A stretch of DNA of 64,000 nucleotides from the NCBI GenBank assembly GCA_963712735.1, contig CAVQIZ010000003.1, forward strand, positions 428,855-492,854, in the 5' to 3' direction. The notes under the pieces were generated by a model that was given only the letters and a program-made list of their open reading frames with translations, ran no database searches and had not been told where the DNA came from. Positions within the stretch are counted from its first letter, which is position 1, and every line of letters begins with the position of its first letter. Below are positions 24,627 through 41,065 of the stretch, in pieces. A program made the translations under genes and the position numbers. Source of the stretch: an uncultured Chloroflexia bacterium. GTDB lineage: Bacteria; Chloroflexota; Limnocylindria; Limnocylindrales; CSP1-4.

Positions 24627-24728
24627 ATCGTTGGCGCGTCGCGTCAAGCCGGTCAAGTGACGGATGGCCCACGCCGCGTGCGCCTCGCCCCGGCGGCGAC
24701 GACCAGACCAAACCCGCCATTCATGGCG
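24627..24728 (-). repeat. R-element copy with duplicated -35 (TTGACC/TTGACG) and AACGAT
   Basis: GCGTCAAGCCGGTCAAGTGACGGATGGCCC...CGGCGGCGACGACCAGACCAAACCCGCCATTCATGGCG, followed by GCCGCTGGCGAATGGC (B-type-like motif). Confidence 0.7.
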
Positions 24729-24763
24729 CATCGTGCGGCTCTGCCGCTGGCGAATGGCTCCAC

Positions 24764-25342
24764 CTAGGGGAGCAAGGGCATGGCCTCTTCGAGCGGCAAT
24801 CCGCCGGCGCCGATCGCATTGACCAGCATCTCGCCACTCGCGTAGATCACGATCCATTGGTTGTCCGGTCCTCGGTACACGGGCCACACCGTGCGGCCGC
24901 CGATGGTCTCCAGCGGCAGTGGGAAGTCGGGCGGCAGTCCCGCATCTTCTGCTGTCCTCATCCACATGCTCTCCAACAGAACCCTGCCTTCGACGCCATC
25001 GACACGAAAGGCGTTGATCGCGTAGGCCGGCGTCGTGGTCAGATCAGCGGCGAAGGCTTGGGCGATACGGAGGTCATCGGCCGTCTTCCCAAGAGCGGTG
25101 AGCACATCCGCGATGGCCTCGGTGCCTGCCGAGTCTGCGAGGGCGCCAGGTCCCGTCAAGACACGCACCGTGAGGGGGATCCCGCCCAGCTCCTGCGGCA
25201 TGAGGACCGACAAGTCGTCGGGCGGCACCGGTGACGAGTCCGGAGGCTCCGACGCGATCACCATCCCGCCGAAAGCCAAGACGACAGCAGCCAGGATCAG
25301 CGCCGCAACGCTACGTCGCACGAGTCCACCACCTTTGCCCAT
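24764..25342 (-). CDS. Secreted protein carrying the stand-alone linker module
   Basis: Membrane/signal segment VAALILAAVVLAFGGMVIA. LTALGKTADDLRIAQAFAADL...AFRVDG is colinear with VGRSIDDLTVATALHE...ALRVEG of 10231..12405. Confidence 0.7.
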   Translation of the reverse strand: MGKGGGLVRRSVAALILAAVVLAFGGMVIASEPPDSSPVPPDDLSVLMPQELGGIPLTVRVLTGPGALADSAGTEAIADVLTALGKTADDLRIAQAFAADLTTTPAYAINAFRVDGVEGRVLLESMWMRTAEDAGLPPDFPLPLETIGGRTVWPVYRGPDNQWIVIYASGEMLVNAIGAGGLPLEEAMPLLP

Positions 25343-25361
25343 GTCCTCCCCACCCTACTCC

Positions 25362-25437
25362 CTGGGCAAGAGCCGCTCGGCCCGTAGCGCGCAACGCCAT
25401 GGCGGCGGCGACCAGACCGAACCCACAATGCATGGCG
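25362..25437 (-). repeat. R-element copy (-35 TTGCCC)
   Basis: CTGGGCAAGAGCCGCTCGGCCCGTAGCGCGCAACGCCATGGCGGCGGCGACCAGACCGAACCCACAATGCATGGCG. Confidence 0.7.
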
Positions 25438-25489
25438 ATCTTGTTGGTGAGTGGCTGCTGGCGCTGCGAGGCAAGCCTGGGGACCGAAG

Positions 25490-26647
25490 CTAGTCGGTCG
25501 GAGTCCAGACCTCCGCCGAGGCGAGCGGTCCGTTCTCACCCTCGCCACCGATGACCAGGACACGTCCATCCGCTGTGAGCGTCGCAGTATGGTTCTCGCG
25601 TCCCTCGCCCAGCGAGCCCGCGGAGCTGAACTCGCCGGTCGCTGGGTCCCAGATCTCCGCGGAGGTGAGCTCTCCTTCTCCGCGCCAGCCACCGATGACC
25701 AGGACACGTCCGTCCGGCATGAGCGTGGCGGTATGAAGACTGCGAGCCTCGTCAAGCGAGCCCGTTGGGCTGAAGGTCTCGGTCGTCGGGTCCCAGACCT
25801 CCGCCGAGGCCAGGAAGTCCGAGCCGCCCCAGCCACCGATGACCAGGACGCGGCCGTCCGACAGGAGCGTGGCCGTGTGGTTGATGCGCGTCTCGATGAG
25901 TGAGCCTGCCCGGCTGAACGCGCCGGTCGCTGGGTCCCAGATTTCGGCTGCATCTGGGTCAGGACCGAGCTCGTTGGTGGCACCGCCGCCGACCACGAGG
26001 ACTCGACCGTCGGCGAGCAGCGTCTCGGTCGGCTTGAAGCGTGGCACGGTCAGCCATGCCACCTGGCCGAAGGTCTCGGTCACCGGGTCCCAGATCTCCG
26101 CTGATATTCCGTACTCGTCGAAGTCGCCCCCGATGATGAGCACCCGGCCATCGAGTAACAGGATCGCGTCATGCGTGGCACGGGACTGGGTGAGGGTGCC
26201 CGCCGGATGGAACCTGAAAGTCGCGGGGTCCCAGGTCTCGGCCACGCGCAGGACGTCCCAGGAGCGCGGGTACGCACTCCCGATCACGTCGGGCTGGCCA
26301 CCGACGACGAGGACGCGGCCATCCGGCAACGACGTCGTGGTCGCGTAGCTGCGTCCCCACGTCAGCCACGCCGCGGGGCTGAACCGGTCCGTCGCGGGGT
26401 CCCAGACCTCGGCCGCAGACGGGAAGTTCGACCCACCACCAAGCACGAAGACACGTCCGTCCGGCAGGAGTGTCGCGGTGTTGATGCCGCCGGTCTCGGT
26501 GAGTGAGCCCGCCGGGCTGAACGCCCCGGCCGCGGGCGACTCCTCTGCGGCCCTGGTCGCTGGGGCCGAAATGAGCAGGAGCGTGAGTGCCATGGTGGTG
26601 AGGAGGAGGTGCCGCATCCCGTTTCTCCTTGCCGGAACTCGCCGCAT
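25490..26647 (-). CDS. Secreted Kelch-repeat protein
   Basis: Seven LPDGRVLV(I/V)GG...AE(V/I)WDP repeats. Signal peptide ...MRHLLLTTMALTLLLISAPATRA. The alternative start ATG 26617 has an AAGGAGA RBS. Confidence 0.85.
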   Translation of the reverse strand: MRRVPARRNGMRHLLLTTMALTLLLISAPATRAAEESPAAGAFSPAGSLTETGGINTATLLPDGRVFVLGGGSNFPSAAEVWDPATDRFSPAAWLTWGRSYATTTSLPDGRVLVVGGQPDVIGSAYPRSWDVLRVAETWDPATFRFHPAGTLTQSRATHDAILLLDGRVLIIGGDFDEYGISAEIWDPVTETFGQVAWLTVPRFKPTETLLADGRVLVVGGGATNELGPDPDAAEIWDPATGAFSRAGSLIETRINHTATLLSDGRVLVIGGWGGSDFLASAEVWDPTTETFSPTGSLDEARSLHTATLMPDGRVLVIGGWRGEGELTSAEIWDPATGEFSSAGSLGEGRENHTATLTADGRVLVIGGEGENGPLASAEVWTPTD

Positions 26648-26673
26648 CGATCCTCTACGTGCGGCTACCGCTC

Positions 26674-26765
26674 ATCCTCCGCACCCCGGTGAGGGGGTCA
26701 AGGGCCGGACGGCCCGCACGGCGTGTGTCGCCATGGCGGCCACTAGCGCCGTCGCGGAACGCGTG
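26674..26765 (-). repeat. R-element copy (distal half degenerate) with TTGACC-N16-GAGGAT
   Basis: GGGGGTCAAGGGCCGGACGGCCCGCACGGCGTGTGTCGCCATGGCGGCCACTAGCGCC... ATCCTC at 26674-26679. Confidence 0.6.
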
Positions 26766-26769
26766 ATGT

Positions 26770-26886
26770 CTATCGGCATTCGCGCCATCTCGGAATGGCG
26801 ATGATCCACAAGCCGGAGACCACGAATCCAACGACCACGCCGGCGACGATCCCAAGCACGGCGAGCAAGTACACGAGCCAGTCCAT
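26770..26886 (-). CDS. 38-aa single-TM peptide
   Basis: MDWLVYLLAVLGIVAGVVVGFVVSGLWIIAIPRWRECR. GGAGGTG RBS 5 nt upstream. Sits directly downstream of an R-element promoter. Confidence 0.45.
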   Translation of the reverse strand: MDWLVYLLAVLGIVAGVVVGFVVSGLWIIAIPRWRECR

Positions 26887-26908
26887 GCCGCACCTCCGTA
26901 CGGTTTCC

Positions 26909-27006
26909 ATAGTGCTCGCCCCGTGCAGTAGGTCAAGAGCCGTACGGCCTCGCCGCGTGTGTCGCCATGGCGGCGGCGACCAGGCCAAACCCGCTATTCA
27001 TGGCGA
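26909..27006 (-). repeat. R-element full copy with TTGACC-N16-CACTAT
   Basis: GGTCAAGAGCCGTACGGCCTCGCCGCGTGTGTCGCCATGGCGGCGGCGACCAGGCCAAACCCGCTATTCATGGCG. Confidence 0.8.
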
Positions 27007-27065
27007 TCGCCTACTCGCCTGATCAAGGGTGCTTCGCCAGGCCTCCTCCTGACGTCGAAGCGCGA

Positions 27066-27095
27066 TTGCTGGACGTGGGAATCCTCCGGTACCAT
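27066..27095 (+). promoter_or_regulatory. Promoter candidate TTGCTG-N18-TACCAT, 6 nt before the ATG at 27102 (leaderless candidate)
   Basis: TTGCTG at 27066-27071 and TACCAT at 27090-27095. No SD between the -10 and the ATG. Confidence 0.4.
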
Positions 27096-27101
27096 CTGCC
27101 G

Positions 27102-28262
27102 ATGCCCCCGCCAGAAGCATCGGTCGAGGCAGTCGCGCGCGCCGCGCTCGCTGACCCCGCGGCGCAGTTGCTGGATTGGTCCGAGATGCCCCTGGGCGGA
27201 GGCTTGACCGCGGAGATCGGGACAAGCGGTGGCGTGCTCAGAGTGCGTGGCCGTGCCCGCTCAAGGGGACAGCCTGTCAGTTGGAGCGCGATCCAGAAGC
27301 TTGTGCGGCCGAGCGCGATCGCGTGGGGCGACGGCACCATTCCTCGGGATGATCCGCGCGGCTTCGAGTACTGGCGTCGCGAGCCCGAGGCATACCGGGA
27401 CGGCCTCCTCGACGAACTCGGACCTCGGTTGTCGGCGCCGCGCTGTTTCGGCGTGCACGAGGACGATCTGGGCATGGTCATCTGGATCGAGGACGTCGAT
27501 GACGACGGGCCCGAAGTATGGGGCCTCGACGACTACCGCGAGGCCGCTCGCGCGCTGGGGGGTTGGAACGGCACCTACCTCGTGGGTCGTCCGCTGCCCG
27601 AGCGGCCGTGGTTCACGCGGAGTCGGATCCCCGACTGGCTGGAGCTGGGAGGCCCAGGCATCGAAGCGATGTCGTCGGCGCGACGCACTGGTCTGCTGGA
27701 GGCCTGGCTCGACGATGCCATGGTGAGGCGCCTACAGGCGCAGTGGACGATGCGCGATCGTCTCATCGAGATCCGTGAACGACTGCCGCAGACCTTGTGT
27801 CACCACGATGCGACCCGTCGGAACCTCGCTTTCCGCGGGGCCGGTGCGGAGCAAACCGTCGTGGCCATCGACTGGCAGTTCATCGGCGCAGGACACCTGG
27901 GCGACGAGATCGCAGCCATGGTGACGGCTACCCTGCAATTCCTCGATGTCCCCGCGAACGACGCTCGAGCGTTCGGGGAGGCGGCTCTCGACGGCTACGT
28001 CGATGGCCTGAGGGACGCGGGCTGGACCGGTGCGCGATCACTCGTGGAGCTTGGCTTCAAGGCCTCCGCGGCACTGCTGATGGGACTCGGCGGCGCCGGG
28101 CTTTGGTTCGAGGGCTTCCGGAACGGGCTGATGACCGAGGCACTCGCCGAGCGGATCGTGGGCCGGTCAGTCGATGAGCTCGGCGCGGCGTGGCCGACTG
28201 TCCAGTCCTACTTCCTCGACCTCGGCGATGAGGCTCTGGAACTGTCAACGCGTCTCGACTAG
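27102..28262 (+). CDS. Aminoglycoside-phosphotransferase-fold kinase family protein
   Basis: LCHHDATRRNL (HxDxxxxN catalytic loop) and VAIDWQFIGAGHLGDE (D-x-x metal-binding motif). The upstream part of the 431-aa ORF is just translated R-element. Confidence 0.75.
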   Translation: MPPPEASVEAVARAALADPAAQLLDWSEMPLGGGLTAEIGTSGGVLRVRGRARSRGQPVSWSAIQKLVRPSAIAWGDGTIPRDDPRGFEYWRREPEAYRDGLLDELGPRLSAPRCFGVHEDDLGMVIWIEDVDDDGPEVWGLDDYREAARALGGWNGTYLVGRPLPERPWFTRSRIPDWLELGGPGIEAMSSARRTGLLEAWLDDAMVRRLQAQWTMRDRLIEIRERLPQTLCHHDATRRNLAFRGAGAEQTVVAIDWQFIGAGHLGDEIAAMVTATLQFLDVPANDARAFGEAALDGYVDGLRDAGWTGARSLVELGFKASAALLMGLGGAGLWFEGFRNGLMTEALAERIVGRSVDELGAAWPTVQSYFLDLGDEALELSTRLD

Positions 28263-28287
28263 GTCTTCGCCCCGCGCCTGCTCGAGC

Positions 28288-28354
28288 GGAGACGGCCTGG
28301 CCGCGTGCTCAGCCCTGGCGGCGACGACCAGACATAGCCCGCTATCCATGGCGG
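28288..28354 (-). repeat. R-element partial copy (distal half) between convergent genes
   Basis: GGAGACGGCCTGGCCGCGTGCTCAGCCCTGGCGGCGACGACCAGACATAGCCCGCTATCCATGGCGG. Confidence 0.6.
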
Positions 28355-28411
28355 TTCCGGCCTGCCCTACTCACCCGTCTCTCCGATGAGCGTCGGAGCG
28401 CATTCGCGTGC

Positions 28412-28789
28412 TCATGACCAACGGACAGCGACCGCGCACGCAACGAGTGGGCCGACCAGCAGGTAGGTCGAGTAGAACAGCCCTGACGCCACACGTGCGC
28501 CGAGGTGGTGTTTGTCGTGGAACTCGAGGATGCTGAAGAACAGGATCACCGTCGCAAGCCAGCCCAGGAGCGTGCCCACCACCAGCACCACCGGCAAGGC
28601 GAACAGGTTCCACTCGGCAAGGGCGATGACGACTCCGGCGATGGCAGCGACCACGCCGGCCGGGAACCAGCCGATGAACCGCACGACCTGGGTCGAACCG
28701 CCGTCGTCGAGGACGGTGAAGCATGCAGGACAGAGCCGGTCGCCGTGCTCGGTCCGTACTCCGCAATTCAGGCAGCGCGCTGAACGCAT
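28412..28789 (-). CDS. Zn-ribbon (CxxC...CxxC) membrane protein, paralog of 34786..35163
   Basis: MRSARCLNCGVRTEHGDRLCPACF followed by 3-4 hydrophobic helices. Near-identical paralog at 34786. Confidence 0.7.
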   Translation of the reverse strand: MRSARCLNCGVRTEHGDRLCPACFTVLDDGGSTQVVRFIGWFPAGVVAAIAGVVIALAEWNLFALPVVLVVGTLLGWLATVILFFSILEFHDKHHLGARVASGLFYSTYLLVGPLVACAVAVRWS

Positions 28790-28820
28790 GATGAGCTTCT
28801 CGGTATCTCGTGCCGGGACT

Positions 28821-28918
28821 ACGGTCCCGCACCCCATTCATTGGGTCAAGAGCTGGAAGGCATAACGGCTGCCGTCACCATGGCGGCGACGACCAGACCA
28901 AACCCGCTACTCATGGCG
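28821..28918 (-). repeat. R-element full copy with TTGACC-N17-GACCGT
   Basis: GGGTCAAGAGCTGGAAGGCATAACGGCTGCCGTCACCATGGCGGCGACGACCAGACCAAACCCGCTACTCATGGCG. Confidence 0.8.
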
Positions 28919-28925
28919 GTATGGC

Positions 28926-29535
28926 CTAGCCTTCGGTGGGCAGGAACTCGAAGGACTCGGCGATCGCCAGCCACAAGTCGTCGCGACGGGTAGCAGCCAC
29001 GCAGTCCATGAGGTAGTACCAGCCACGGTGTAGCCACTCGAAGGTGGCGTCCTCCTCGGAGCCCGCCGGTCCCTGGGACAGGAACGAGCGTAGTGCATTC
29101 CCAGAGGGCAGAACGATCGGCTCACGACGGACGGCGGCGTAGTACTCCTCGTCCGACTCCTTCCGCATCACCGCAAGGTCCGCCAAGGTCATCTCGTCGC
29201 ATGGCCACGTATCGACGTAGACGTTGTTGCGCCAGTCAGCTGGGTCGCCCGCGAGAAGAGCCGTGGTCATCTGTTGACCGGCTATCACCGACCGCGACTC
29301 GTCGTCGAATTGCTCCATCGCCTCGGCAAGGTCGGGATGCCAGAAGATCGAAGGCGATCCAGTCGTCGGGCACCGAGAGGCCGAAGCCTGCTGGATGGAC
29401 GTGGATGCGCCCGCCAACGACGATGGGAGCATCCGCCTCGCTGTCGGGTGACGGTGTGTCCCACGCCTGGTCGCCGGAGGCGCTGCGGTCGAGCCAGTCG
29501 CCGAACTCCCCAAGGAACGGAGATGGGTGATGCAT
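28926..29535 (-). CDS. Fam-1 protein, frame-disrupted at ~29340 as assembled
   Basis: GGRIHVHPAGFGLSVPDDWIAFDL (ORF 29236..29571) continues in ORF 28926..29636 as HPDLAEAMEQFDDES...DDLWLAIAESFEFLPTEG. Removing one G of CTGGCA restores AFDLLHPDLAEA. Confidence 0.65.
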
Positions 29536-29562
29536 GTCATCCCCTTCGCGTGGCCATCTCTC

Positions 29563-29654
29563 AGTCTCCACGCCACTCTCCAGCGGGTCAAGGGCCGGAC
29601 GGCCGCCCCTGTGCCATGGCGGCGACGACCAGACATAACCCGCTACTCGTGGCG
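29563..29654 (-). repeat. R-element full copy with TTGACC-N17-GAGACT
   Basis: CAGCGGGTCAAGGGCCGGACGGCCGCCCCTGTGCCATGGCGGCGACGACCAGACATAACCCGCTACTCGTGGCG. Confidence 0.8.
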
Positions 29655-29705
29655 GTGCTCAAGCACCAACAGCGAGCACGATGGACGGCGGCGGGACAAT
29701 GGTAC

Positions 29706-29782
29706 GTAGCGGGAGGCAGCGAAACGCGGTCCACACCATGGCCGCCGGGACCGCGCCGAGCCACTGGCGAACCCGGCCCGCC
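29706..29782 (+). repeat. R-element, inverted (B-type) variant upstream of a Fam-2 gene
   Basis: GTAGCGGGAGGCAGCGAAACGCGGTCCACACCATGGCCGCCGGGACCGCGCCGAGCCACTGGCGAACCCGGCCCGCC. GACAAT (-10-like) lies just upstream. Confidence 0.65.
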
Positions 29783-29804
29783 TACAGGCCGAGGAGGCTT
29801 GTCC

Positions 29805-30347
29805 ATGCGCACGTCGCGATCGTTCCTCGTGGGGTTGGGCGCTCTCAGTCTGGTTGCCAGCCTGTCTTTGGCGGTGGTGGCGCAAGACGAAGAGGAGCTG
29901 GAGCCACCCACGGCCACCTTCGTTACGGGGGTCGCGGTCTCCAAACTAGAGGATGTCGACTTCGCCGGGTGGGAGATGGAGTGGAGCGACCCGCGTCTGC
30001 CGTCGCGGGCGCAGTACCGGTTCAGCGCGGAGACAGGGCGGAGCGATCATCCCGACGGGACCGTCATGGCCGCGCAGATGGTGGCGGTGGTGCGGCTCGA
30101 CGGTCCTGATGGCGGCTGGTCCGGGACCGACTGGATCCTGGCATGGACATTGGAACCTGAACCGGGTGAGAAGGGTCGGGACACGTGGATCGAGGTGTTG
30201 ATGCTGGATGGTGACGGCGACTACGAGGGCCTCTCGGCCACGCTCACGAACACCGGCCGTGGAGGTTCCCCCGGCCCCTACGAAGGCTTCATCTTCGAGG
30301 GCGAGTTGCCGCGCATGCCGGACCGGATCGAACCGAACTCCGAGTAG
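29805..30347 (+). CDS. Fam-2 secreted protein
   Basis: MRTSRSFLVGLGALSLVASLSLAVVAQ; WSDPRLPSR; GDGDYEGLSA; YEGFIFEGELPRMP; GAGGAGG RBS. Confidence 0.75.
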   Translation: MRTSRSFLVGLGALSLVASLSLAVVAQDEEELEPPTATFVTGVAVSKLEDVDFAGWEMEWSDPRLPSRAQYRFSAETGRSDHPDGTVMAAQMVAVVRLDGPDGGWSGTDWILAWTLEPEPGEKGRDTWIEVLMLDGDGDYEGLSATLTNTGRGGSPGPYEGFIFEGELPRMPDRIEPNSE

Positions 30348-30388
30348 CTGGATCGCGCCGCGTCGGCCGCCTCGGTCGCCACGCTCGG

Positions 30389-30466
30389 CCGGTCAACGCC
30401 CGACGGCCCGGCGGCGGGACGTTGCCATGGCGGCGACGACCAGGCCGAACCGCTGTACTTGGCGAT
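30389..30466 (-). repeat. R-element copy downstream of a Fam-2 gene (no usable -10)
   Basis: CCGGTCAACGCCCGACGGCCCGGCGGCGGGACGTTGCCATGGCGGCGACGACCAGGCCGAACCGCTGTACTTGGCG. Confidence 0.7.
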
Positions 30467-30471
30467 CCTGC

Positions 30472-31056
30472 CTACTCCTGCTCCTCGGGCAGGAACTCGA
30501 TGGTCTGGGCGATCGACAGCCAGTCATCGTCGGGCGCTTCGTCGAGGCTCGTACACCAGAGCCAGACGCAGCCGGGATCCCTCGCGATGACGAACACGGA
30601 ATGGAACACGTCCCGGCCCTGGTGCCGCGTGCGCTGGATGAGGTGGGACGCATGGCCAGCGGGCACGTCCATCTCGATGACACCGAAGCTGTCGTCAGGC
30701 AGGAGGAGGATCGCGAGCGAGAAGGCGACGTCGCGGGTGGTCAGCGGGAGAGGTTGCCATCGGGGTGTGAGGTCGAACGGCCCCAGGTCGCAGTGTTCTT
30801 GTCGCTGCTCATACGCCGGAGCGATCCCACGCGCCAGCACGGGGAAGATCGGGATGGCCGGCCCCTGCATCCGTCCCGCGCGTGTCCTCGGGAGTGCCTC
30901 GGGTGTGACGAGGACCTCCCAGTCGACTGGATACGTCTCCGCGACGTCAGCCCATGGCATCTCGATCCGCTGCCCTGTGGCCGTCGTGACGGGCTCGGGT
31001 GACTCTGCGGCAGCGGCGACGGCATCGGCCGCCGACAGTGCCACCACCACCAGCAT
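30472..31056 (-). CDS. Fam-1 secreted protein; start uncertain
   Basis: MLVVVALSAADAVAAAA...; C-terminal PDDDWLSIAQTIEFLPEEQE. The upstream portion of the 242-aa ORF is translated R-element. Confidence 0.7.
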   Translation of the reverse strand: MLVVVALSAADAVAAAAESPEPVTTATGQRIEMPWADVAETYPVDWEVLVTPEALPRTRAGRMQGPAIPIFPVLARGIAPAYEQRQEHCDLGPFDLTPRWQPLPLTTRDVAFSLAILLLPDDSFGVIEMDVPAGHASHLIQRTRHQGRDVFHSVFVIARDPGCVWLWCTSLDEAPDDDWLSIAQTIEFLPEEQE

Positions 31057-31121
31057 CGTCACGAATCGAGTCCTCTTCGTCCTTGCTGTGGATGCCTTCT
31101 TCTTCCCCGCGCCGCTCTCCC

Positions 31122-31220
31122 GGTTCAAGGGCCGGACGGCCCGGCGGCCCGGCGGCCCGGCGGCTTGGCGGCTTGGCGGCCATGGTGGCACCGACCACAT
31201 ATCACCCGCGCTTCATGGCG
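31122..31220 (-). repeat. R-element copy containing an 8-nt microsatellite (GGCCCGGC x3, GGCTTGGC x2)
   Basis: GGTTCAAGGGCCGGACGGCCCGGCGGCCCGGCGGCCCGGCGGCTTGGCGGCTTGGCGGCCATGGTGGCACCGACCACATATCACCCGCGCTTCATGGCG. Confidence 0.7.
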
Positions 31221-31408
31221 ATATCGGGACGCTCGTCGTAGTCCAGCGAGGATGCGCGAGCGGAATCCAGGAACCCGCTGAGCAATATGATGGCCAGCAC
31301 GATCACCATCACGCCGAGGAGCAGTGGCAAATCGCGCCGCCAGCGAGACCTCTGATTGATCTCAGCTTGCAGCTCTCGATCCAACTCTGGATCACCGCGC
31401 GAGTACAT
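31202..31408 (-). CDS. 68-aa single-TM protein; last codons and stop lie inside the R-element
   Basis: MYSRGDPELDRELQAEINQRSRWRRDLPLLLGVMVIVLAIILLSGFL... GGGAGG RBS. Downstream of a TCGACC-N17-CACGAT promoter. Confidence 0.45.
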   Translation of the reverse strand: MYSRGDPELDRELQAEINQRSRWRRDLPLLLGVMVIVLAIILLSGFLDSARASSLDYDERPDIAMKRG

Positions 31409-31433
31409 CGCGGACCTCCCGACGAGTCATGCC

Positions 31434-31520
31434 ATCGTGTGGGCGCGACCGCTGATGGTCGAGTGCCGGACGGCCCGGCGCCATGGCGGCGACGACCAGA
31501 CATCTCCGCTCTTCATGGCG
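31434..31520 (-). repeat. R-element copy with TCGACC-N17-CACGAT
   Basis: GGTCGAGTGCCGGACGGCCCGGCGCCATGGCGGCGACGACCAGACATCTCCGCTCTTCATGGCG. Confidence 0.7.
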
Positions 31521-31560
31521 GTCTCGTGGCTTGCAGCTCACGGCGCGCAGGCCGTGGTTA

Positions 31561-32640
31561 CTATTCTTCCGGCAGGAACTCGAAGGACTCGGCGATGGAC
31601 AGCCACTCCTCACGATGGGACAGCACGCCGGTGCACCAGAGCAAGGCGACGGCGTCGCCCCCACCGATGGCGTAGTGCTCGACGTAGACAGCGCCCGGGC
31701 TGTCGGTGCGGATGCGCCCCGTCATGAACTGGTTCATGAAGACCCGGCTCAGCCCTTCGTGGAGTGGCTCGACGATCAGATCCTCTGACTGCCCGAAGAT
31801 CTCGTTCAAGAACTCGTCGGCGGTGAGCTCGATCGGCGCGGATTTCACGAGCGTGCAGAGGTTCGGCGTGTCGCGCTCGCGTCCCTCGGGCCCCCATGCG
31901 ACGAGTAGGTTCTGCAGCACGACGTCGGGTCCGAAGCGTTCCGGCCCAGACAGGATGAGGATGGCCGTGTCGGAGTCTTCCTCGACGATCTCGATGTCCC
32001 AGTCCTCTGGGGGCGTCACCGCGTAGCCGGGTTCGCGAACCTCGCTCCGCCGACTGGACTCCGGTGGGGAGGAGGGACCCGTCGTCTCGTCGGGCAACCG
32101 CCCTGGCTCGGCGGGCAGGAGCTCGATGGACTCGGCGATGGTGTACCACAGCCGCCCAGCGTAGGCATCGGTCGTGCTGCAGGTCAGCCAGGCGTACCCG
32201 TCGTCGGCCGCGAAGATGTACGTGTCGCTGGTGCCGGCCTGTCCTTGCTTGGGCAGGTCGGGCGCGTACAGGCGCACCGCTTCTCCTGCCGGCAGTTCCG
32301 CCGCGGGGGCGATCTGGGCCTGGCGATAGCCGCGGATGCTACTCAGCGTGGAAGCGATCTCCTCTGGTCGCACACCGTCGAACTGGAACGTCTCCACGAT
32401 GCATCGCCCCGCACCGCCCACCTCGCGAGCGACCAGCACACGGTCGAAGATCGGGAGGCCCTGCTCTCCCGTCGTGACCCGCCAGCCAGCGGGGACGGTC
32501 AGGGCGAGCCCGTGGTCGGGAAACTCGAACCGCTGGTCCTCGGCAATCGGGCTGGGCCTCGGTCGCTGCGCGATGGCCGACGCGCCAGTCACGACCACGA
32601 CGGCGCAGACCAACAGCGCAGAGACAGCTAGACGAACCAT
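31561..32640 (-). CDS. Fam-1 secreted protein with two tandem modules
   Basis: MVRLAVSALLVCAVVVVTGASA. HGLALTVPAGW...RLWYTIAESIELLPAEPG, then PGYAVTPPEDW...REEWLSIAESFEFLPEE. The ATG at 32640 follows GGGGGG, and the upstream ATG overlaps the -10. Confidence 0.8.
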   Translation of the reverse strand: MVRLAVSALLVCAVVVVTGASAIAQRPRPSPIAEDQRFEFPDHGLALTVPAGWRVTTGEQGLPIFDRVLVAREVGGAGRCIVETFQFDGVRPEEIASTLSSIRGYRQAQIAPAAELPAGEAVRLYAPDLPKQGQAGTSDTYIFAADDGYAWLTCSTTDAYAGRLWYTIAESIELLPAEPGRLPDETTGPSSPPESSRRSEVREPGYAVTPPEDWDIEIVEEDSDTAILILSGPERFGPDVVLQNLLVAWGPEGRERDTPNLCTLVKSAPIELTADEFLNEIFGQSEDLIVEPLHEGLSRVFMNQFMTGRIRTDSPGAVYVEHYAIGGGDAVALLWCTGVLSHREEWLSIAESFEFLPEE

Positions 32641-32665
32641 CAGGCCCCCCGATGCGGCTGTCTCC

Positions 32666-32750
32666 ATCCTCCGTGATCTGGTCAGGGGGTCAAGGGCCGG
32701 ACGGCCCGCGCCCTGGCGGCGACGACCAGACCATCCGCAATGCCTGGCGG
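32666..32750 (-). repeat. R-element copy with TTGACC-N16-GAGGAT
   Basis: GGGGGTCAAGGGCCGGACGGCCCGCGCCCTGGCGGCGACGACCAGACCATCCGCAATGCCTGGCGG. Confidence 0.75.
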
Positions 32751-32965
32751 TTCTGGGGCACCGTGACCGCGAAACCGTACTCAGGCATCTCCACCCCATC
32801 ACCGGCCGCGTCGTCAGAGGCGCCGGCAGGCCTGGCCACGATGATCATCAACGCGATGACGACACCGACGGCGACGGTGACCGCGATGACCAGGCGACCC
32901 GTCTTGCTCAGTCCCCATCTCGGAGGGGGGTCTCCGGGGTGGGTGAACCTCCAGCCTTGTGGCAT
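32690..32965 (-). pseudogene. Membrane-anchored Fam-1 remnant truncated by the R-element
   Basis: MPQGW...GRLVIAVTVAVGVVIALMIIVA...EMPEYGFAVTVPQN opens a Fam-1 module (GFAVTVP). It then runs into repeat sequence and stops at the TGA of the repeat's TTGACC. Confidence 0.4.
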
Positions 32966-32971
32966 GCCCCC

Positions 32972-33068
32972 ATCGTCCCCGCCCCGCTCAGCGGGTCAAG
33001 GGCCGGACGGCCCGGCGGCATGCGTGGCCATGGCGGCGACGACCAGACCAAACCCGCTATTCATGGCG
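32972..33068 (-). repeat. R-element, near-consensus full copy with TTGACC-N16-GACGAT, 6 nt before the ATG at 32965
   Basis: CCCCGCTCAGCGGGTCAAGGGCCGGACGGCCCGGCGGCATGCGTGGCCATGGCGGCGACGACCAGACCAAACCCGCTATTCATGGCG. Confidence 0.85.
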
Positions 33069-33192
33069 ATGCTGGAACGGTCCTGGGGAGTGACTTGACG
33101 CGGCCACTAGCCTTGTGGCTCGCGCCGGTCCGGCAGGCAGCAGAAGGCTTGTCCGTCCCCGGATGCACCGCGAGGGCAAAGGAGCATCTTTC

Positions 33193-33759
33193 ATGCGGCC
33201 GATTGAAACCACTGTCGTTTCCATCCTTGCGCTCGGCTTGCTGGCAGGGTCGGCGATCGGGGTCGCGGCGCAGGACGAGGAAGCGCCGGCTGGCGTCACC
33301 AGCTTCACGGGCTCCTTCAGCACGGACGCTGAATGGCCCGATGTGGCAACCGAGACCGAACTCCCGAACGGCTTCTCCGAAACGACCGGTCACGTGAGAC
33401 TGAACAGCTGGGTGTCGAGCGACCCTCGCCTCACCGGGGACGTCGCCACCGTCGTCAACTGGGTCCTCGACCCGGACGGCTTCAGCGCGATGGAGACGGG
33501 TCGCCAGCCCAACATGCTCAACGCGTCCATCACCGAGCTGACCAACGACGGGGGGAGCTGGCTCGGCGAGGGCGTCAGCATGAGCAGCACCGACCTCGAC
33601 GTCGCCACCGACAGCATCATCCTCGTCGGCCGGGACGGATACGAAGGCCTGACGGCCTACGTCCTCGTCGACGGCCGTGAATGGCCGCCCACGTACAGCG
33701 GCGTCATCTTCCCGTCCGCTATGCCCGACGTCCCTGAGGAGCCGTACGCGGGCGAGTAG
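33193..33759 (+). CDS. Fam-2 secreted protein
   Basis: MRPIETTVVSILALGLLAGSAIGVAAQ; SSDPRLTGD; GRDGYEGLTA; YSGVIFPSAMPDVP; AAAGGAG RBS. Confidence 0.75.
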   Translation: MRPIETTVVSILALGLLAGSAIGVAAQDEEAPAGVTSFTGSFSTDAEWPDVATETELPNGFSETTGHVRLNSWVSSDPRLTGDVATVVNWVLDPDGFSAMETGRQPNMLNASITELTNDGGSWLGEGVSMSSTDLDVATDSIILVGRDGYEGLTAYVLVDGREWPPTYSGVIFPSAMPDVPEEPYAGE

Positions 33760-33787
33760 GTCACTCGCGCCACCCGGGCTGTGCGCG

Positions 33788-33827
33788 CCTGCGACGACGA
33801 CCAGACCAAACCCGCTATTCATGGCGG
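33788..33827 (-). repeat. R-element partial copy (distal half)
   Basis: CCTGCGACGACGACCAGACCAAACCCGCTATTCATGGCGG directly after the Fam-2 stop. Confidence 0.6.
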
Positions 33828-33863
33828 TTCTGGGCCACCGCCATCGCGTGGTTGGACACCCGC

Positions 33864-33906
33864 GCGAGAATCTGCATAGCGGGAGGCGATGTCGCGCGGC
33901 CCGCGC
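33864..33906 (+). repeat. R-element B-type variant, truncated
   Basis: GCGAGAATCTGCATAGCGGGAGGCGATGTCGCGCGGCCCGCGC. Shares GAGAAT..TAGCGGGAGGCGATG..GCGCGGCCC with 12697-12735 and 2361-2392. Confidence 0.5.
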
Positions 33907-33921
33907 AGCAGGGGGGAAGTC

Positions 33922-34659
33922 ATGCGAAGACTGTCGATCGCGGGAGCCGTCGTGCTGATGTGCCTAATGCTCGGTGGGATGCCGGCGCTGGCGCAGGAGA
34001 CCGCAGACGAAGCGCCAGCCGGACCGGCCATCGTCACCGGCACCGCGGTGTGTGACGAGTTCACGCCGAATCTCTGGTCCGAGACTGCCTGGGGTGGCTA
34101 CGAGCGTGACGATGGCGCCTGGTGCAACGTAGCAGCGAGTGACCCTCGCGTCAGCGGCGACTTCTTCAACACCTACAACGTGGATTGCTATGGGGTGGAG
34201 CCGGATCAGGCGTTCTGCATCTTCCGCGGGGCCTACGTGTTCGATGCGCCGGACGGCGGCTGGGATTGCACGTGGACAGGATCCGACCTGCCGGTGGAGG
34301 AGACCGGCCTGCTCATCACCGGTATCTGCCACGGCACCGGTGGCTACGAGGAACTGACGCACGTCTACCAGCACACCGATGTCGGGTCGTTCGCGGACGG
34401 CAGCAACTACCGCGCCGCCATCTACGAGGGCGAGCCGGTGCCGTTCTCCGAGGTCATCACCGACCCCGTCGCGGTCGTGATCGCGGGCCGGGACGCCGTG
34501 GCCGGCTACATCGTGCTGCCAGCCCTGCAGTACGTGCCGGGGGCGGAGGTCGGCCCCGATGTCTTCACCGACCCCGGCGAACTCAGGGGGCGCAAGGCCG
34601 CGGTGGACATCCCCGCGGGCACACCTATCACGCCCGACCTGCTGGAACCCGCCGAGTAG
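33922..34659 (+). CDS. Fam-2 secreted protein with a SAF-like C-terminal extension
   Basis: MRRLSIAGAVVLMCLMLGGMPALA; ASDPRVSGD; GTGGYEELTH; IYEGEPVPF. Then ...RKAAVDIPAGTPITPDLL is reminiscent of SAF/CpaB-type domains. Confidence 0.7.
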   Translation: MRRLSIAGAVVLMCLMLGGMPALAQETADEAPAGPAIVTGTAVCDEFTPNLWSETAWGGYERDDGAWCNVAASDPRVSGDFFNTYNVDCYGVEPDQAFCIFRGAYVFDAPDGGWDCTWTGSDLPVEETGLLITGICHGTGGYEELTHVYQHTDVGSFADGSNYRAAIYEGEPVPFSEVITDPVAVVIAGRDAVAGYIVLPALQYVPGAEVGPDVFTDPGELRGRKAAVDIPAGTPITPDLLEPAE

Positions 34660-34727
34660 CCCGATAGGCCGCCTCGGCTGCCTGCGCCATGGCGGCGGCG
34701 ACCAGACATGACCCGCTGTACATGGCG
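34660..34727 (-). repeat. R-element partial copy (distal half) between convergent genes
   Basis: CCCGATAGGCCGCCTCGGCTGCCTGCGCCATGGCGGCGGCGACCAGACATGACCCGCTGTACATGGCG. Confidence 0.6.
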
Positions 34728-34785
34728 ATCCCGGCCTGTCCTACTCAGCCGCTACTCCGGTGAGCGCCGGAGCGCCTTCGCGTGC

Positions 34786-35163
34786 TCAAGACCACCGGAT
34801 CGCGACCACGCATGCGACGAGTGGACCGACCAGCAGATATGTGGAGAAGTACAGCCCTGACGCCACGCCTGCACCGAGGTGGTGGTGGGCGTGGAACTCG
34901 AGAAGCCCGAAGAACAGGGCCATGGTGGCGACCCAGCCCAGGAACGTGCCCACCGCCAGCACGATCGGCAGGGCCAACAAGTCCCACTCCGCAAGGGCGA
35001 CGATGACTCCGGCGATGGCGGCAACCACGCCAGCCGGGAACCATCCGATGAACAACACGGCCTGCGTCGAACCGCCGTCGTCGAGGACGGTGAAGCATGC
35101 GCGACAGAGCCGTTCGCCGTACTCCACTCGTGCGCCGCAATTCAGGCAGTGCGCTGAACGCAT
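34786..35163 (-). CDS. Zn-ribbon membrane protein, paralog of 28412..28789
   Basis: MRSAHCLNCGARVEYGERLCRACF plus hydrophobic helices. The 5' leader is also conserved at nucleotide level with the paralog. Confidence 0.7.
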   Translation of the reverse strand: MRSAHCLNCGARVEYGERLCRACFTVLDDGGSTQAVLFIGWFPAGVVAAIAGVIVALAEWDLLALPIVLAVGTFLGWVATMALFFGLLEFHAHHHLGAGVASGLYFSTYLLVGPLVACVVAIRWS

Positions 35164-35194
35164 GATGAGCTTCTCGGTATCTCGTGCCGGGACC

Positions 35195-35284
35195 ACGGTC
35201 CCGCGCACCGGTCAGCGGGTCAAGGGCCGGACGGCCCAGCGGCCACGGCGATGACGACCAGACCAAACCCTCTATACATGGTGG
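35195..35284 (-). repeat. R-element full copy with TTGACC-N17-GACCGT
   Basis: GTCAGCGGGTCAAGGGCCGGACGGCCCAGCGGCCACGGCGATGACGACCAGACCAAACCCTCTATACATGGTGG. Confidence 0.8.
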
Positions 35285-35316
35285 TTCTGGAGTGGCCTCC
35301 AGTGGCTCGCGCCCGG

Positions 35317-36000
35317 CTACTCCTCGGCGGGCAGGAACTCGATGGACTCGGCGATGGCGAGCCAGCGGTCGGCGTGGCGCGTCGCGTCCATGCAGGTCAG
35401 CGAGTAGCCGCGGCCATCGTGCAACAGGAGGTAGACGGTCCTCGCGAGTTCGCCACCCCCGGGGTAGGGCGTCGCATACTCGACCATGCCTGCCCGCCCG
35501 GACGGCAGGTCGACGAAGACGGGCACGGGGTCGGCGGTCGAGTCCACCATGGTCCGCATCGTCAGCAGCTGGGCCGCCACCATGAGGTCGAGTGACGCCG
35601 TGGCTATCGGTTCGACGGCCATGTTGCAGTTCTCGCCGGCGGTCGGCCCATCGAGCGGTGCGAGTGCGATGAGGGGCAGCTCGACGAGCGGATACGCCGC
35701 CGCCAGGTCCGGCGCCACGCTCTCGACGCTGAAGGAGGCCATCGTCGGCGCCAGCGCCGCGGTCAGTTCATCGAAGGACTCCATCGCCGCGCCGAGGCCC
35801 GGGTCCAGGAGGTCGAAGGCGTACCAGCCCTCGGGCACGGTGAGCGCGAAGCCCGCTGAGGGGACCTCGATACGGCCCCCGAGGACGACCGGCCCCGCGT
35901 GCGTTCCGACCTCGGGTGTCGGCGATTGCGCCGTGACAGCGGAGCCACCACCGATGCCCATCAGGCTCAGGACCAGGAACACCACCGTCAGTCGCCGCAT
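35317..36000 (-). CDS. Fam-1 secreted protein (single module)
   Basis: MRRLTVVFLVLSLMGIGGGSAVTA; GGRIEVPSAGFALTVPEGWYAFDLLDPG; C-terminal HADRWLAIAESIEFLPAEE. Confidence 0.8.
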   Translation of the reverse strand: MRRLTVVFLVLSLMGIGGGSAVTAQSPTPEVGTHAGPVVLGGRIEVPSAGFALTVPEGWYAFDLLDPGLGAAMESFDELTAALAPTMASFSVESVAPDLAAAYPLVELPLIALAPLDGPTAGENCNMAVEPIATASLDLMVAAQLLTMRTMVDSTADPVPVFVDLPSGRAGMVEYATPYPGGGELARTVYLLLHDGRGYSLTCMDATRHADRWLAIAESIEFLPAEE

Positions 36001-36029
36001 CCATCCATCCCCACTTGCGATCGCCCCAC

Positions 36030-36126
36030 ATCCTCCGCGCCCGGGCCAGCGGGTCAAGGGCCGGACGGCCCGGCAGTGTGCTGCGCCATGGCGGCGACGA
36101 CCAGACATAACCCGCTATCCATGGCG
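36030..36126 (-). repeat. R-element full copy with TTGACC-N16-GAGGAT
   Basis: CCAGCGGGTCAAGGGCCGGACGGCCCGGCAGTGTGCTGCGCCATGGCGGCGACGACCAGACATAACCCGCTATCCATGGCG. Confidence 0.85.
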
Positions 36127-36302
36127 ATGTCGGCGGCAGGCCTCGCTGAGCCTTGCGGCTTCGCGAGTCTGAGACGACGAGGACCCGGCGGCTGCGTGCA
36201 GCCGGGGCCACAGGCGAGGTCCGTGCTGAGGTGCGCTAGATCCCATAGGGCTTTGTCAAGTCCGTGACCTAGCCGCCACCCTCGCCGGGCGTTGACGAAG
36301 GG

Positions 36303-36331
36303 TGAATAATTCGGGTGTCCCGGTTCGTCTA
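36303..36331 (+). promoter_or_regulatory. ECF-type promoter candidate TGAATA-N17-CGTCTA (possible autoregulation; near-leaderless)
   Basis: TGAATA at 36303-36308 and CGTCTA at 36326-36331, 9 nt before the ATG at 36341. Resembles the TGAAAC-N16/17-CGTxTA class of ECF promoters. Weak, motif-only call. Confidence 0.3.
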
Positions 36332-36340
36332 GTAGTCGTG

Positions 36341-36931
36341 ATGGGGGTCATCGACGTGCTGGATCACCAGCACCGACGGTCGGTCAGCGAGGCAGTGCCG
36401 AGCGCTGTCGTGGACGAGCACGCCCGCCTCGAGCGCGAGCTGGCCTTCCACCGCTTGGTGGACAGGCACCTCGATCGCAGCTACCGCCTGGCGACAGTCG
36501 TGCTGGACAGCACCAGCGAGGCCCAGGACGCTGTCCACGATGCCTTCCTGACCGCATGGCGCAAGTACGACATGCTGCGCGATCCCGACCGCCTCGAAGC
36601 TTGGTTCGACCGCATCGTCGTCAACACCTGCCGTGACCGGATGCGGCGCAATCACCGACTCCAGGTCCGAGACATCTCGGCGGTGCCGGACATCGCAGGC
36701 AGTGATCCGACCGCGGCCGTGTCGGCTGAGGTCGTCATGGAACGCGCCCTCGAGCGGCTCCGGCCCGATGACCGCATCGTGCTCGCGCTGCGCTTCTACC
36801 GCGACATGAAGGTCGACGACATCGCCGCCGCCATGGATATCCGACCGCGTGCTGCGGCCTCGCGCCTCCACCGGGCGCTGGAGCGGCTGCGGCGCATCCT
36901 CGAACAAGACCAGGAGGAGGTCGCCCCATGA
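36341..36931 (+). CDS. ECF (sigma-70 family group 4) RNA polymerase sigma factor
   Basis: Region 2: AQDAVHDAFLTAWRKYDMLRDPDRLEAWFDRIVVNTCRDRMRR. Region 4: LRPDDRIVLALRFYRDMKVDDIAAAMDIRPRAAASRLHRALERLR. Confidence 0.85.
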   Translation: MGVIDVLDHQHRRSVSEAVPSAVVDEHARLERELAFHRLVDRHLDRSYRLATVVLDSTSEAQDAVHDAFLTAWRKYDMLRDPDRLEAWFDRIVVNTCRDRMRRNHRLQVRDISAVPDIAGSDPTAAVSAEVVMERALERLRPDDRIVLALRFYRDMKVDDIAAAMDIRPRAAASRLHRALERLRRILEQDQEEVAP

Positions 36932-37719
36932 TCGAGCGCGACCTCGAGAGCCGGCTTCGGAGCACCTATCGCTCCAGGGCTGGACGAGCAGACCCGGGTG
37001 CGCTCAGCGAGCGCGTGCATTCCATCCCCGCCACGGTCGAGCCGGAGCGCCGGCGCTGGTGGCACGGTTTCGGGTTCGGCGCCTCGCACAGCGCCGGGTC
37101 CGGCGGGGTCGAGGTGAAAGGAGCGAGCAACATGCTTACAGCGACACGTATCGCCGCGATCGTTGCGGTGCTAGCTCTGGGCGCCACGTTCCTGGCTGTT
37201 CAGGTCGGGGTTCCACCCGACACAGCGCAACAGCCCGCGGCGCCGACCGGCGAGACCAGCGCGGCCGTTTCGCACAAGGCGACAGGCTTCACTGGGACGA
37301 GCACGTGGGGCGTGCAGTACGAGGAAGGCCGGGAGTTGGCGGTCGAGGGCAAGGTGTCGCTGCTGGGTGCAGCCTGGCAGATGACCCTCAGCGACATGAG
37401 CGACCCGCGGATGAACGGAACGCTCCGGATCGCCTACAACGAGGACTTCCACGGCGTGCAGGGCCGAGTCTCGTCGTTCTCGACTCGGATCGACAATGAA
37501 CTGGGGTCGTGGCTTGGCACGGGCGACGAGTACTTCGGTACGACCGACATGGATCTGCTCTTCGGCCAAGCGCTTTATCGTGGCACCGGCGCATACGAGG
37601 GCCTCTCGGCCATGGTGTTCATGCAAGGACGAGGCGCCGACGGACTCGGCTACTACGGGATCGTCTTCCCCGGCGAGATGCCCGAGGTGCCGGAGATGCC
37701 GGAACCGCCCGCCGAATAG
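36928..37719 (+). CDS. Anti-sigma-like single-pass membrane protein with an extracytoplasmic Fam-2 domain
   Basis: ATGA overlap with the sigma gene. Cytoplasmic N-terminus, TM RIAAIVAVLALGATFLAV, then MSDPRMNGT, GTGAYEGLSAM, YYGIVFPGEMPEVP. Confidence 0.7.
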   Translation: MIERDLESRLRSTYRSRAGRADPGALSERVHSIPATVEPERRRWWHGFGFGASHSAGSGGVEVKGASNMLTATRIAAIVAVLALGATFLAVQVGVPPDTAQQPAAPTGETSAAVSHKATGFTGTSTWGVQYEEGRELAVEGKVSLLGAAWQMTLSDMSDPRMNGTLRIAYNEDFHGVQGRVSSFSTRIDNELGSWLGTGDEYFGTTDMDLLFGQALYRGTGAYEGLSAMVFMQGRGADGLGYYGIVFPGEMPEVPEMPEPPAE

Positions 37720-40978: not shown

Positions 40979-41065
40979 CGCGGACCGCCGCGCCAGCTGT
41001 GATAGCGTTCTACCATGCTACTATGCTACCATAACGACACGGACCAGCACGCCCAGCAGGAGACC

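Follow-up and report, generated by a model that had tools for sequence, protein, structure and literature searches.

A dispersed palindrome and promoter-like module as a putative regulated promoter cassette in an uncultured Chloroflexota lineage

The same short piece of DNA stands before many secreted- and membrane-protein genes of an uncultured Chloroflexia bacterium, which raises the question of what this repeat does. The stretch analyzed here (the window) comprises 64,000 nucleotides (nt) of contig CAVQIZ010000003.1 (positions 428,855 to 492,854; assembly GCA_963712735.1), with a base composition of 67-74% G+C. The repeat is found in a chromosomal gene array at about 8.7-36.2 kb. An earlier note on this DNA had treated it as a single cassette, in which an outward-facing promoter is joined to a palindrome and to CATGGCG sites further upstream. 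Two separable modules, R and L, are found instead. The R-module is a unit of about 45 bases in which a 14-base palindrome is joined to a TTGACC...GAGGAT-type pair, and it is probably a self-contained, regulator-controlled promoter cassette of this lineage. It heads about twenty genes here, mostly for secreted proteins, and more than 150 others in related uncultured soil Chloroflexota.

The 20-mer formed by the palindrome and TTGACC, GGGCCGTCCGGCCCTTGACC, occurs at 17 sites in the window when up to three mismatches are allowed, and 16 of these are on the minus strand. The expectation is 0.04, and none of 100 shuffles reaches 17. A search with the 44-nt R consensus returns 14 copies, all on the minus strand, against 0.45 in shuffles. 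The -35 hexamers, spacers and -10 hexamers tabulated in the earlier note were recovered identically by script for all 18 minus-strand genes and for the two plus-strand Kelch genes, 10231 and 15621. The Kelch promoters had been described as lacking the repeat body, but degenerate palindromes are present (GGGACCTTCGACCC, 10163-10176; GGGCCGTTCGCCAC, 15495-15508). The rows of the 18-gene list stand, and extra copies with a degenerate or missing -10, together with a remnant, are added to them in Table 1. Two listed gene starts are doubtful and probably not the true ones: 10037 is the ATG within AAGGATG, and paralogues of gene 15223 point to a start about 45 nt further downstream.

The consensus of the R-module reads GGGCCGTCCGGCCC TTGACC cgCTGAsCgggGCGcG GAnGAT G(G/A)G and is often preceded by cacGCCGCC. 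TTGACC, which agrees with TTGACA at five of six positions, is kept in 138-139 of the 139 unique copies of the conservation profile; this invariance is independent for the window copies and about 70 extra copies, the outside loci having mostly been retrieved with the exact 20-mer. The spacer of the same 139 copies is conserved at 0.2-1.0 bit per position. The -10 hexamer keeps A at position 2 (118/120), a further A (112/116) and T at position 6 (115/116), its third base is free (G, C, A or T), and G follows it directly in 104 of 113 copies. Because the variants GACGAT, CACGAT, GATGAT and GAAGAT are tolerated, the conserved pattern is nAnnAT with a G-rich discriminator and not the Shine-Dalgarno (SD) sequence GGAGG. 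Among 203 unique instances of the palindrome plus TTGAC, 171 have nAnnnT at 15-18 nt, where about 10% would be expected by chance. The spacer measures 16 nt in 150 of these, while 12, 7 and 2 copies have spacers of 17, 18 and 15 nt, respectively. The first base of the hexamer is G in 146, C in 16, A in 9 and T in none. Insertions and deletions affect the spacer and the DNA upstream of the palindrome; the junction of palindrome and -35 has none.

Orthologues of gene 23451-24602, in the window and in the outside loci L040, L042 and L016, keep the -35, the -10 and the leader, while the sequence and the length of the spacer have changed. Hexamers that are kept while the spacer drifts support a promoter of the sigma-70 type. 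The module is 90-100% identical before paralogues of only 25-50% protein identity and before unrelated genes.

A coding sequence lies downstream on the same strand in 107 of 127 cases. The R-module flips with its gene, as in the plus-strand copies at 10163 and 15495, and its orientation is mixed in three loci. The start codon follows the -10 at a median of 25 nt (interquartile range 20-28), with a second class at 5-9 nt; in the window the distance is 24-31 nt in 14 of 20 cases, and an SD-like run is present separately. A conserved family of small membrane proteins (window gene 32690-32965; L017, L018, L032, L044) belongs to the second class, and its mRNAs would have little or no leader. A crude test finds an N-terminal hydrophobic segment in 119 of 140 downstream proteins (85%), compared with 214 of 380 for all open reading frames (ORFs). 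The targets in the window are mostly signal-peptide, lipoprotein or transmembrane proteins without Pfam matches, including a family ending in W(L)SIAE(T/S)FEFLP, Kelch propellers and a SecDF-P1-like lipoprotein.

An exact search with the 20-mer in a one-genome-per-species collection returned 56 loci. Of these, 48 come from 19 metagenome-assembled genomes (MAGs) labelled Chloroflexia, Chloroflexota or Ca. Limnocylindrales, one of the same anatomy comes from a MAG labelled Gammaproteobacteria, and seven are chance or unrelated matches in Actinobacteria and Proteobacteria. MAGs carry the module on multiple contigs, so it is dispersed and not limited to one array. A scan of soil and sediment metagenomes added 61 contigs, most with matching anatomy. 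The central proposal of the earlier note, an outward-facing promoter shared by a set of exported-protein genes and joined to a palindromic operator, is backed by comparative sequence evidence, which now covers some 200 instances from 19 or more Chloroflexota MAG species.

The L-module has a 46-nt consensus, GAAtCGCCATGaATAGCGGGTt(T/A)(G/T)GTCTGGTCGTCGCCGCCATGGC, that carries CGCCATG/CATGGCG inverted arms. A 43-nt consensus search finds 20 copies in the window, all on the minus strand, against 0.05 in shuffles. Profile searches of the window and the fetched loci gave 131 L-modules and 134 R-modules: 72 are paired, 62 of the 134 R-modules lack an L-module (some begin directly after the preceding stop codon), and 59 of the 131 L-modules lack a following R-module. 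The linker to the palindrome varies from 0 to 32 nt and mostly ends in cacGCCGCC. L-modules have one orientation per locus in 29 of 29 loci, independent of gene direction, including 21 of 21 copies in the window (15281-36130); further examples are L002, L011, L013, L014, L018, L019, L040 and L044, among others. Where no R-module follows, the next gene is mostly on the opposite strand (21 versus 5 confident calls). The CATGGCG sites, which the earlier note had placed further upstream within the shared promoter/operator cassette, belong to this separable module, at a variable distance and in an orientation set by the array. Since the L-module is conserved evenly over its 46 nt, forms a potential hairpin without compensatory change, has no Rfam match and stands at varying distances from the R-module, a role as a phased upstream operator is unlikely. 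It would rather be a separate junction element with array polarity, outside the promoter. Plus-strand units of the arrays often start with a cyclic di-GMP (c-di-GMP)-II riboswitch.

Three side observations concern these junctions. Two common alleles, GGGTTTGGTCTGG and GGGTTATGTCTGG, occupy the center of the L-module, each in about half of the copies. In the linker at 31143-31176 (minus strand), short tandem repeats gccgccaagccgccaagccgccgggccgccgggccgcc expand it directly upstream of the palindrome. In other genomes an alternative upstream module, gtgaagcttgcatgagcacacccgctc...gccacgccgcc, stands in for the L-module before some R-modules (L050, ~870-937; L068; L072; L082; L090; L006, ~6540-6600).

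From the anatomy, copy number, distribution, orientation, spacing and conservation pattern of the R-module, which are read directly from the DNA, we infer transcription initiation, the sigma factor, regulator binding and co-regulation. RNA polymerase with a sigma-70-family factor, most likely the housekeeping one, would recognize TTGACC as its -35 together with a deliberately sub-optimal -10, GAnGAT, that retains A-11, A-8 and T-7, never has T at -12 and is followed by a G-rich discriminator. Transcription would start about 7 nt downstream of the -10. The transcripts would carry a leader of about 18 nt with a real SD where the start codon lies at the median distance, or would be near-leaderless mRNAs in the 5-9 nt class. 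The palindrome, fixed to the -35 without length variation, would span -48 to -35 with its center at -41.5, the class II position, and is most likely the operator of a dimeric helix-turn-helix (HTH) regulator. Its placement, which the earlier note had found suited to a regulator, is geometrically sound: with a start site 7 nt after the -10 and the -10 at -12 to -7, the center falls at -41.5 for a 16-nt spacer and at -42.5 for a 17-nt spacer. A weak -10 combined with a strong -35 is read as a factor-dependent promoter. The cassette heads fast-evolving secreted- and membrane-protein genes, which would form one regulon. The earlier proposal of an outward-facing sigma-70-like promoter before many such genes thus fits the conservation, spacing, orientation, start-codon distance and ortholog footprinting. 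The cassette would be a regulated sigma-70 promoter of class II type that has spread in an unstudied phylum-level lineage as an intergenic repeat, with no new mechanism.

A full-text search for the palindrome sequence matched one paper. The consensus of Streptomyces OsdR, the DevR/DosR orthologue, is AGGGCCGATCGGCCCT (PMC5069765), and the flanked 16-mer of the R-module, CGGGCCGTCCGGCCCT, agrees with it at 13 of 16 positions. The predicted OsdR sites AGGGCCGTCCGGCCCC and GGGGCCGTCCGGCCCC (SCO0215c, SCO6041) contain the identical 14-mer, and the Kelch-gene box GGGACCTTCGACCC is similar to the narG2 OsdR site AGGGACCTTCGGCCCC (PMC5069765). The closest published specificity of the palindrome appears to be this OsdR/DevR (NarL-family) box. 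In Mycobacterium tuberculosis the proximal DevR box overlaps the -35, in a layout that has been compared to class II CRP promoters and that has non-canonical -10 regions (PMC5360333). At the tgs1 promoter the measured center of the DevR box is -42.5 (PMC3177182).

The R-module shares with the DevR/DosR promoters of Mycobacterium and the OsdR promoters of Streptomyces a GC-rich palindrome, GGG(A/C)C....G(G/T)CCC, a proximal box that overlaps or abuts the -35, and -10 hexamers that depart from the SigA consensus. It differs in retaining a near-perfect -35, in being hosted by Chloroflexota rather than Actinobacteria, and in its targets, which are secreted proteins without assigned function rather than stress, universal stress protein or nitroreductase genes and do not resemble the dormancy regulon. 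It also has a single box, whereas DevR promoters require at least two phased boxes (PMC3177182). By analogy the R-module may work like a Dev-box promoter, though its membership of that class is doubtful on key points. Class II sigma-70 promoters of CRP/FNR are alike in their dimer-sized palindrome at -41.5/-42.5, upstream of the -35, and in having a weak core element. In the R-module, however, the weak element is the -10, the -35 is near consensus, and the palindrome abuts the -35 instead of replacing it. Separately, the 20-mer lies about 30 nt upstream of TAGGGT and a leaderless-looking carbonic-anhydrase-like gene in three Kitasatospora species (L025 1563-1582, L029 4948-4967, L045 2887-2906), and these sites may be genuine OsdR-type boxes of actinomycetes.

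Several points weigh against a regulated sigma-70 promoter. The -10 matches TATAAT at just three of six positions, and a generic sigma-70 scan called no promoter in 20000-37000, because it requires at least four of six -10 matches. T is absent as the first -10 base, while likely housekeeping promoters in the window show TAnnnT by eye, and this difference leaves room for another sigma factor. A near-consensus -35 is atypical for class II activated promoters, so the bound protein could be a repressor. Conservation of the palindrome and the -35 in most outside loci is by construction, because of their retrieval with the exact 20-mer, and the partial conservation of the spacer means that some of the similarity reflects common descent of the repeat and not selection on the hexamers. 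In the 5-9 nt class, GGAGG within the "-10" could equally serve as an SD. Only 3 of 199 copies have a second GGG-N8-CCC box within 80 nt upstream, whereas shuffles give 18. A search of about 0.7 Mb of linked sequence revealed no cognate NarL-family regulator apart from one LuxR-type HTH match in L065, which is without the K182/N183 of DosR; tblastn with DosR gave no match in the window or in L001-L056.

Table 1. Modules of the array and their parts, by window position.
Feature	Position	Strand	Remarks
Focal -10-like hexamer GACGAT	32972-32977	-	6 nt before ATG at 32965, leaderless-type spacing
Focal -35 TTGACC	32994-32999	-	spacer to -10 of 16 nt
Focal 14-bp palindrome GGGCCGTCCGGCCC	33000-33013	-	abuts -35; predicted center -41.5; putative operator
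Focal L-module GAATCGCCATGAATAGCGGGTTTGGTCTGGTCGTCGCCGCCATGGC	33023-33073	-	separable, array-polar; CGCCATG/CATGGCG arms
R-module before 8745	8772-8814	-	degenerate palindrome TGGCCATTCGGCCC + TTGACG-17-AAGCGT
R-module before 9467	9496-9537	-	GGGCCGAAGGGCTC + TTGACG-16-GACGAT
R-module before gene 9552-10037	10036-10077	-	
R-like promoter before Kelch gene 10231	10163-10204	+	GGGACCTTCGACCC + TTGACC-16-CACGAT
R-module before 14067	14094-14136	-	without L-module; 5' edge abuts truncated c-di-GMP-II riboswitch fragment 14143-14191 (+)
R-module before gene 14735-15223	15226-15267	-	
R-like promoter before Kelch gene 15621	15495-15536	+	palindrome GGGCCGTTCGCCAC
Degenerate orphan R-module	18221-18240	-	CCTGACC for TTGACC; faces 3' end of plus-strand gene 17756-18184
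R-module before 19071 (SecDF-P1-like lipoprotein)	19099-19140	-	
Perfect palindrome + TTGACC before 19315-19845	19872-19895	-	without recognizable nAnnnT -10
R-module before 21899	21916-21957	-	
R-module before 23246	23273-23314	-	
R-module before 24602	24627-24670	-	18-nt spacer
Degenerate R-module before 24764-25342	25364-25383	-	GGGCCGAGCGGCTC + TTGCCC
R-module before 26647 (Kelch protein)	26674-26715	-	
R-module before small ORF 26886	26909-26950	-	
R-module before 28789	28821-28863	-	degenerate palindrome
R-module before 29535	29563-29605	-	
R remnant	30391-30409	-	palindrome-like + TTGACC after L-module; -10 part replaced by 3' flank of plus-strand gene 29874-30347
Palindrome + TTGAAC before 30472-31062	31123-31142	-	no clear -10
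R-module before 31408	31434-31476	-	TCGACC as -35
R-module before 32640	32666-32707	-	
R-module before 35163	35195-35237	-	
R-module before 36000	36030-36071	-	first gene of the array
L-modules 1-7 of 21 (all 21 span 15281-36130)	15281-15327, 18250-18300, 19242-19291, 19911-19960, 21968-22017, 23325-23374, 24684-24730	-	
L-modules 8-14 of 21	25393-25442, 26961-27007, 28308-28358, 28873-28922, 29610-29658, 30421-30469, 31177-31225	-	
L-modules 15-21 of 21	31477-31524, 32708-32754, 33023-33073, 33784-33831, 34682-34732, 35240-35288, 36081-36130	-	

Of the other explanations, a terminator-promoter junction survives best, although it is unlikely. Here the palindrome would be an RNA hairpin that ends or stabilizes the upstream transcript and insulates the genes, no regulator would be involved, and the promoter would be limited to TTGACC...GAnGAT. 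Such a hairpin could coexist with an operator. The genes are head-to-tail and tightly packed, each with its own promoter, and the R-module often starts a few nt past the upstream stop codon (L004, L007, L021). The hairpin GGGCC-GUCC-GGCCC, with a 5-bp stem, folds at -9 to -10.6 kcal/mol, and L-only junctions also bear a GC-rich GCCG..CGGC hairpin beside the 3' end of the convergent gene. However, just UU follows the stem, with no U tract, and a terminator scan does not call the palindrome. Variant copies show 8 U·G versus 14 C·A single changes and one double change; because there is little variation and almost none of it is compensatory, covariation cannot tell a protein site from a hairpin. 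The absolutely fixed distance to the -35 would be needless for a terminator, and the first copy of the array (36030-36071) is without a co-directional upstream gene.

An alternative sigma factor (group 2/3, divergent, or the neighboring extracytoplasmic function (ECF) sigma) with a -10 specificity for GAnGAT rather than TAnnnT is quite unlikely. It is favored by the lack of T as the first -10 base in all 171 copies, by the GA(C/G)AAT hexamers of riboswitch-headed genes in the same arrays, and by the ECF sigma/anti-sigma pair that adjoins the array (36302-37719) and has an 89%-identical orthologue among R- and L-modules in L040. Against it, a TTGACC -35 with a spacer of 16-17 nt is classic for group 1, and G at -12 is tolerated by the Escherichia coli sigma-70, which uses GATACT at T7 A1. 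ECF promoters are typically marked by AAC (-35) and CGT (-10). The TGAATAA-N-CGTCTA upstream of the ECF gene itself fits that type, unlike the TTGACC/GAnGAT of the R-module, and an ECF-dependent promoter is rejected on these motif grounds.

Other promoter-like hexamers were noted in the window. By inspection, TAGCAT, TATAGT and TACGAT lie upstream of tyrS, infC and thrS. The his operon gene at 41015 is preceded by TAGCGT and 6 nt, then ATG (~40990-41017), which suggests leaderless transcription from a TAnnnT promoter. Riboswitch-headed genes have a motif of their own, TGGAC-N8-GA(C/G)AAT, about 7-9 nt before the riboswitch start (2330-2361, 12675-12704 and 29670-29702, plus strand). Its -10-like hexamer starts with G, not T, as in the R-module. 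The riboswitches themselves are c-di-GMP-II-GAG matches at 2362-2449, 12705-12790 and 29703-29787 on the plus strand (58.5, 58.2 and 44.2 bits; gathering threshold 40). Genes 12915-13352 and 29874-30347 are paralogues, and the third riboswitch gene is 2506-3018. In other species the riboswitch unit adjoins L-modules divergently.

Recombination may be considered for the L-module and for the repeat as a whole. It is improbable that the L-module and its cacGCCGCC tail serve as attachment or junction site in an undescribed cassette system of soil Chloroflexota, either integrase-less or with an unknown recombinase. In this reading the arrays would be polar, each cassette would bring an R-module or a promoter with a c-di-GMP-II riboswitch as its expression signal, and secreted-protein cassettes would be shuffled between genomes at the L-module/palindrome boundary. 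It is very unlikely that the repeat is in the main a site or scar of recombination in an integron-like or repeat-mediated cassette system, its promoter look being secondary. The constant orientation of the L-module whatever the gene direction (29/29 loci), the L-modules that bound every gene or gene pair in 15-36 kb, and the array content that varies among close relatives all speak for such a scar. So does the truncated riboswitch 3' half at 14143-14191, which abuts the R palindrome at 14137. In addition, a SnoaL-like gene with about 140 nt upstream (4075-4636) is 94% identical to L018 4057-4618, and lies between two L-modules there and outside the array here. The flanks of this segment are unrelated, and of its two breakpoints one coincides with the stop codon and the other falls directly after the cacGCCGCC tail of the L-module, at the usual start of the palindrome. 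The ECF sigma/anti-sigma block at 36269-37244 has 90.6% nucleotide identity to L040 6826-7801; in L040 it is inverted, compared with the window, relative to the neighboring R/L element, and a further L-module follows the block there, which hence lies inside the array.

This evidence bears on the L-module and the junction, however, whereas the R-module follows gene orientation and has promoter-type conservation. Tandem duplication and homologous exchange between repeats explain the data equally well. No integrase or other recombinase was found in the window, and no integrase among the Pfam families listed (25 of 88) in a scan that covered 75 representative ORFs from the loci and not the other 102. 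Cores of the type RYYYAAC...GTTRRRY form two pairs in 8-37 kb, both in coding sequence, against 2.2 in shuffles, and a canonical attC site is rejected since the cores are not enriched. The 75 representative ORFs (loci L001-L106) include one IS110-family DEDD transposase and one IstB (IS21 helper).

Integrons have been described in Chloroflexi, and attC-site clusters that are devoid of integron integrases (CALINs) are without an integrase by definition. Both resemble the array in their small genes, mostly of unknown function, which are separated by a repeat site that holds its orientation even past reversed genes, and in content that varies between relatives. The array differs in the lack of IntI and of core enrichment, and its junction repeat shows sequence conservation without signs of selection for pairing. 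Promoters are rare in integron cassettes, whereas those of the array have a promoter or riboswitch of their own. Intergenic repeats of the miniature inverted-repeat transposable element type, e.g., the Correia elements of Neisseria, are short, conserved, present in many copies, and supply promoter elements to unrelated genes. The R-module is likewise short, conserved and multi-copy before unrelated genes. It differs from them in that no terminal inverted repeats or target-site duplications are evident, and in its strict orientation to gene starts at a fixed distance, kept across at least 19 species.

A transcribed RNA or coding element, i.e., a structured leader, an SD and start codon GGAGGATG, or a micro-ORF MNSGFGLVVAAMA...GPSGP* that ends at the TGA of TTGACC, is hardly credible: GGAGG matches the anti-SD perfectly, the sequence allows small hairpins to be drawn and 30 L-R copies are in frame from the L-module ATG to the TGA, but folding energy is no better than in shuffles (z -0.6 to +0.8, both strands), an Rfam search of the element gave no match at gathering thresholds or at E up to 10, the palindrome, spacer hairpin and L-module hairpin have 0-1 compensatory pairs, GACGAT, CACGAT and GATGAT break GGAGG while keeping A..AT, the real SD lies about 15-20 nt further on, and the micro-ORF reading holds for only 30 of 131 L-modules, with 31 lacking the ATG and many showing early stops or frame shifts.

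If the R-module works as a regulated promoter, it would give an abundant but uncultured lineage of soil Chloroflexota (MAG labels Chloroflexia/Limnocylindrales) its first explicit promoter/operator model, and would define by sequence a putative regulon of well over a hundred secreted and membrane proteins without assigned function. The 16-mer CGGGCCGTCCGGCCCT could serve as a concrete bait to capture the regulator. The identity with predicted OsdR sites suggests a NarL-family stress/redox regulator specificity common to Actinobacteria and Chloroflexota. The position of R-modules beside c-di-GMP-II riboswitch genes in the same hypervariable arrays points to a surface repertoire controlled jointly by transcription and a second messenger, and the array-polar L-module may point to a new route of gene-array assembly.

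The W(L)SIAE(T/S)FEFLP family is made up of secreted proteins with one or two domains of about 170 amino acids and no Pfam match. Its genes in the window are 8832-9467, 13453-14067, 22002-23246, 30472-31062, 31561-32640 and 35317-36000. The domain is also fused to a Kelch propeller, at the C-terminus of the product of 10231-12405. A weak PsbP-like match of gene 6776-7750 (E = 0.003) is the sole such match for the family.

One flank of the array is composed of ABC-F, luciferase-like and SnoaL genes. The other contains the ECF sigma pair, the his operon, tyrS, PBP1, pheST, rplT, infC and thrS, and an MBL (metallo-beta-lactamase) hydrolase is also among the flank products. The tyrosyl-tRNA synthetase is encoded in two overlapping minus-strand ORFs, 47533-48096 and 48056-48826, one for the catalytic domain, the other for the C-terminal and S4 domains. 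The split is a frameshift, either a sequencing or assembly error or the mark of a pseudogene.

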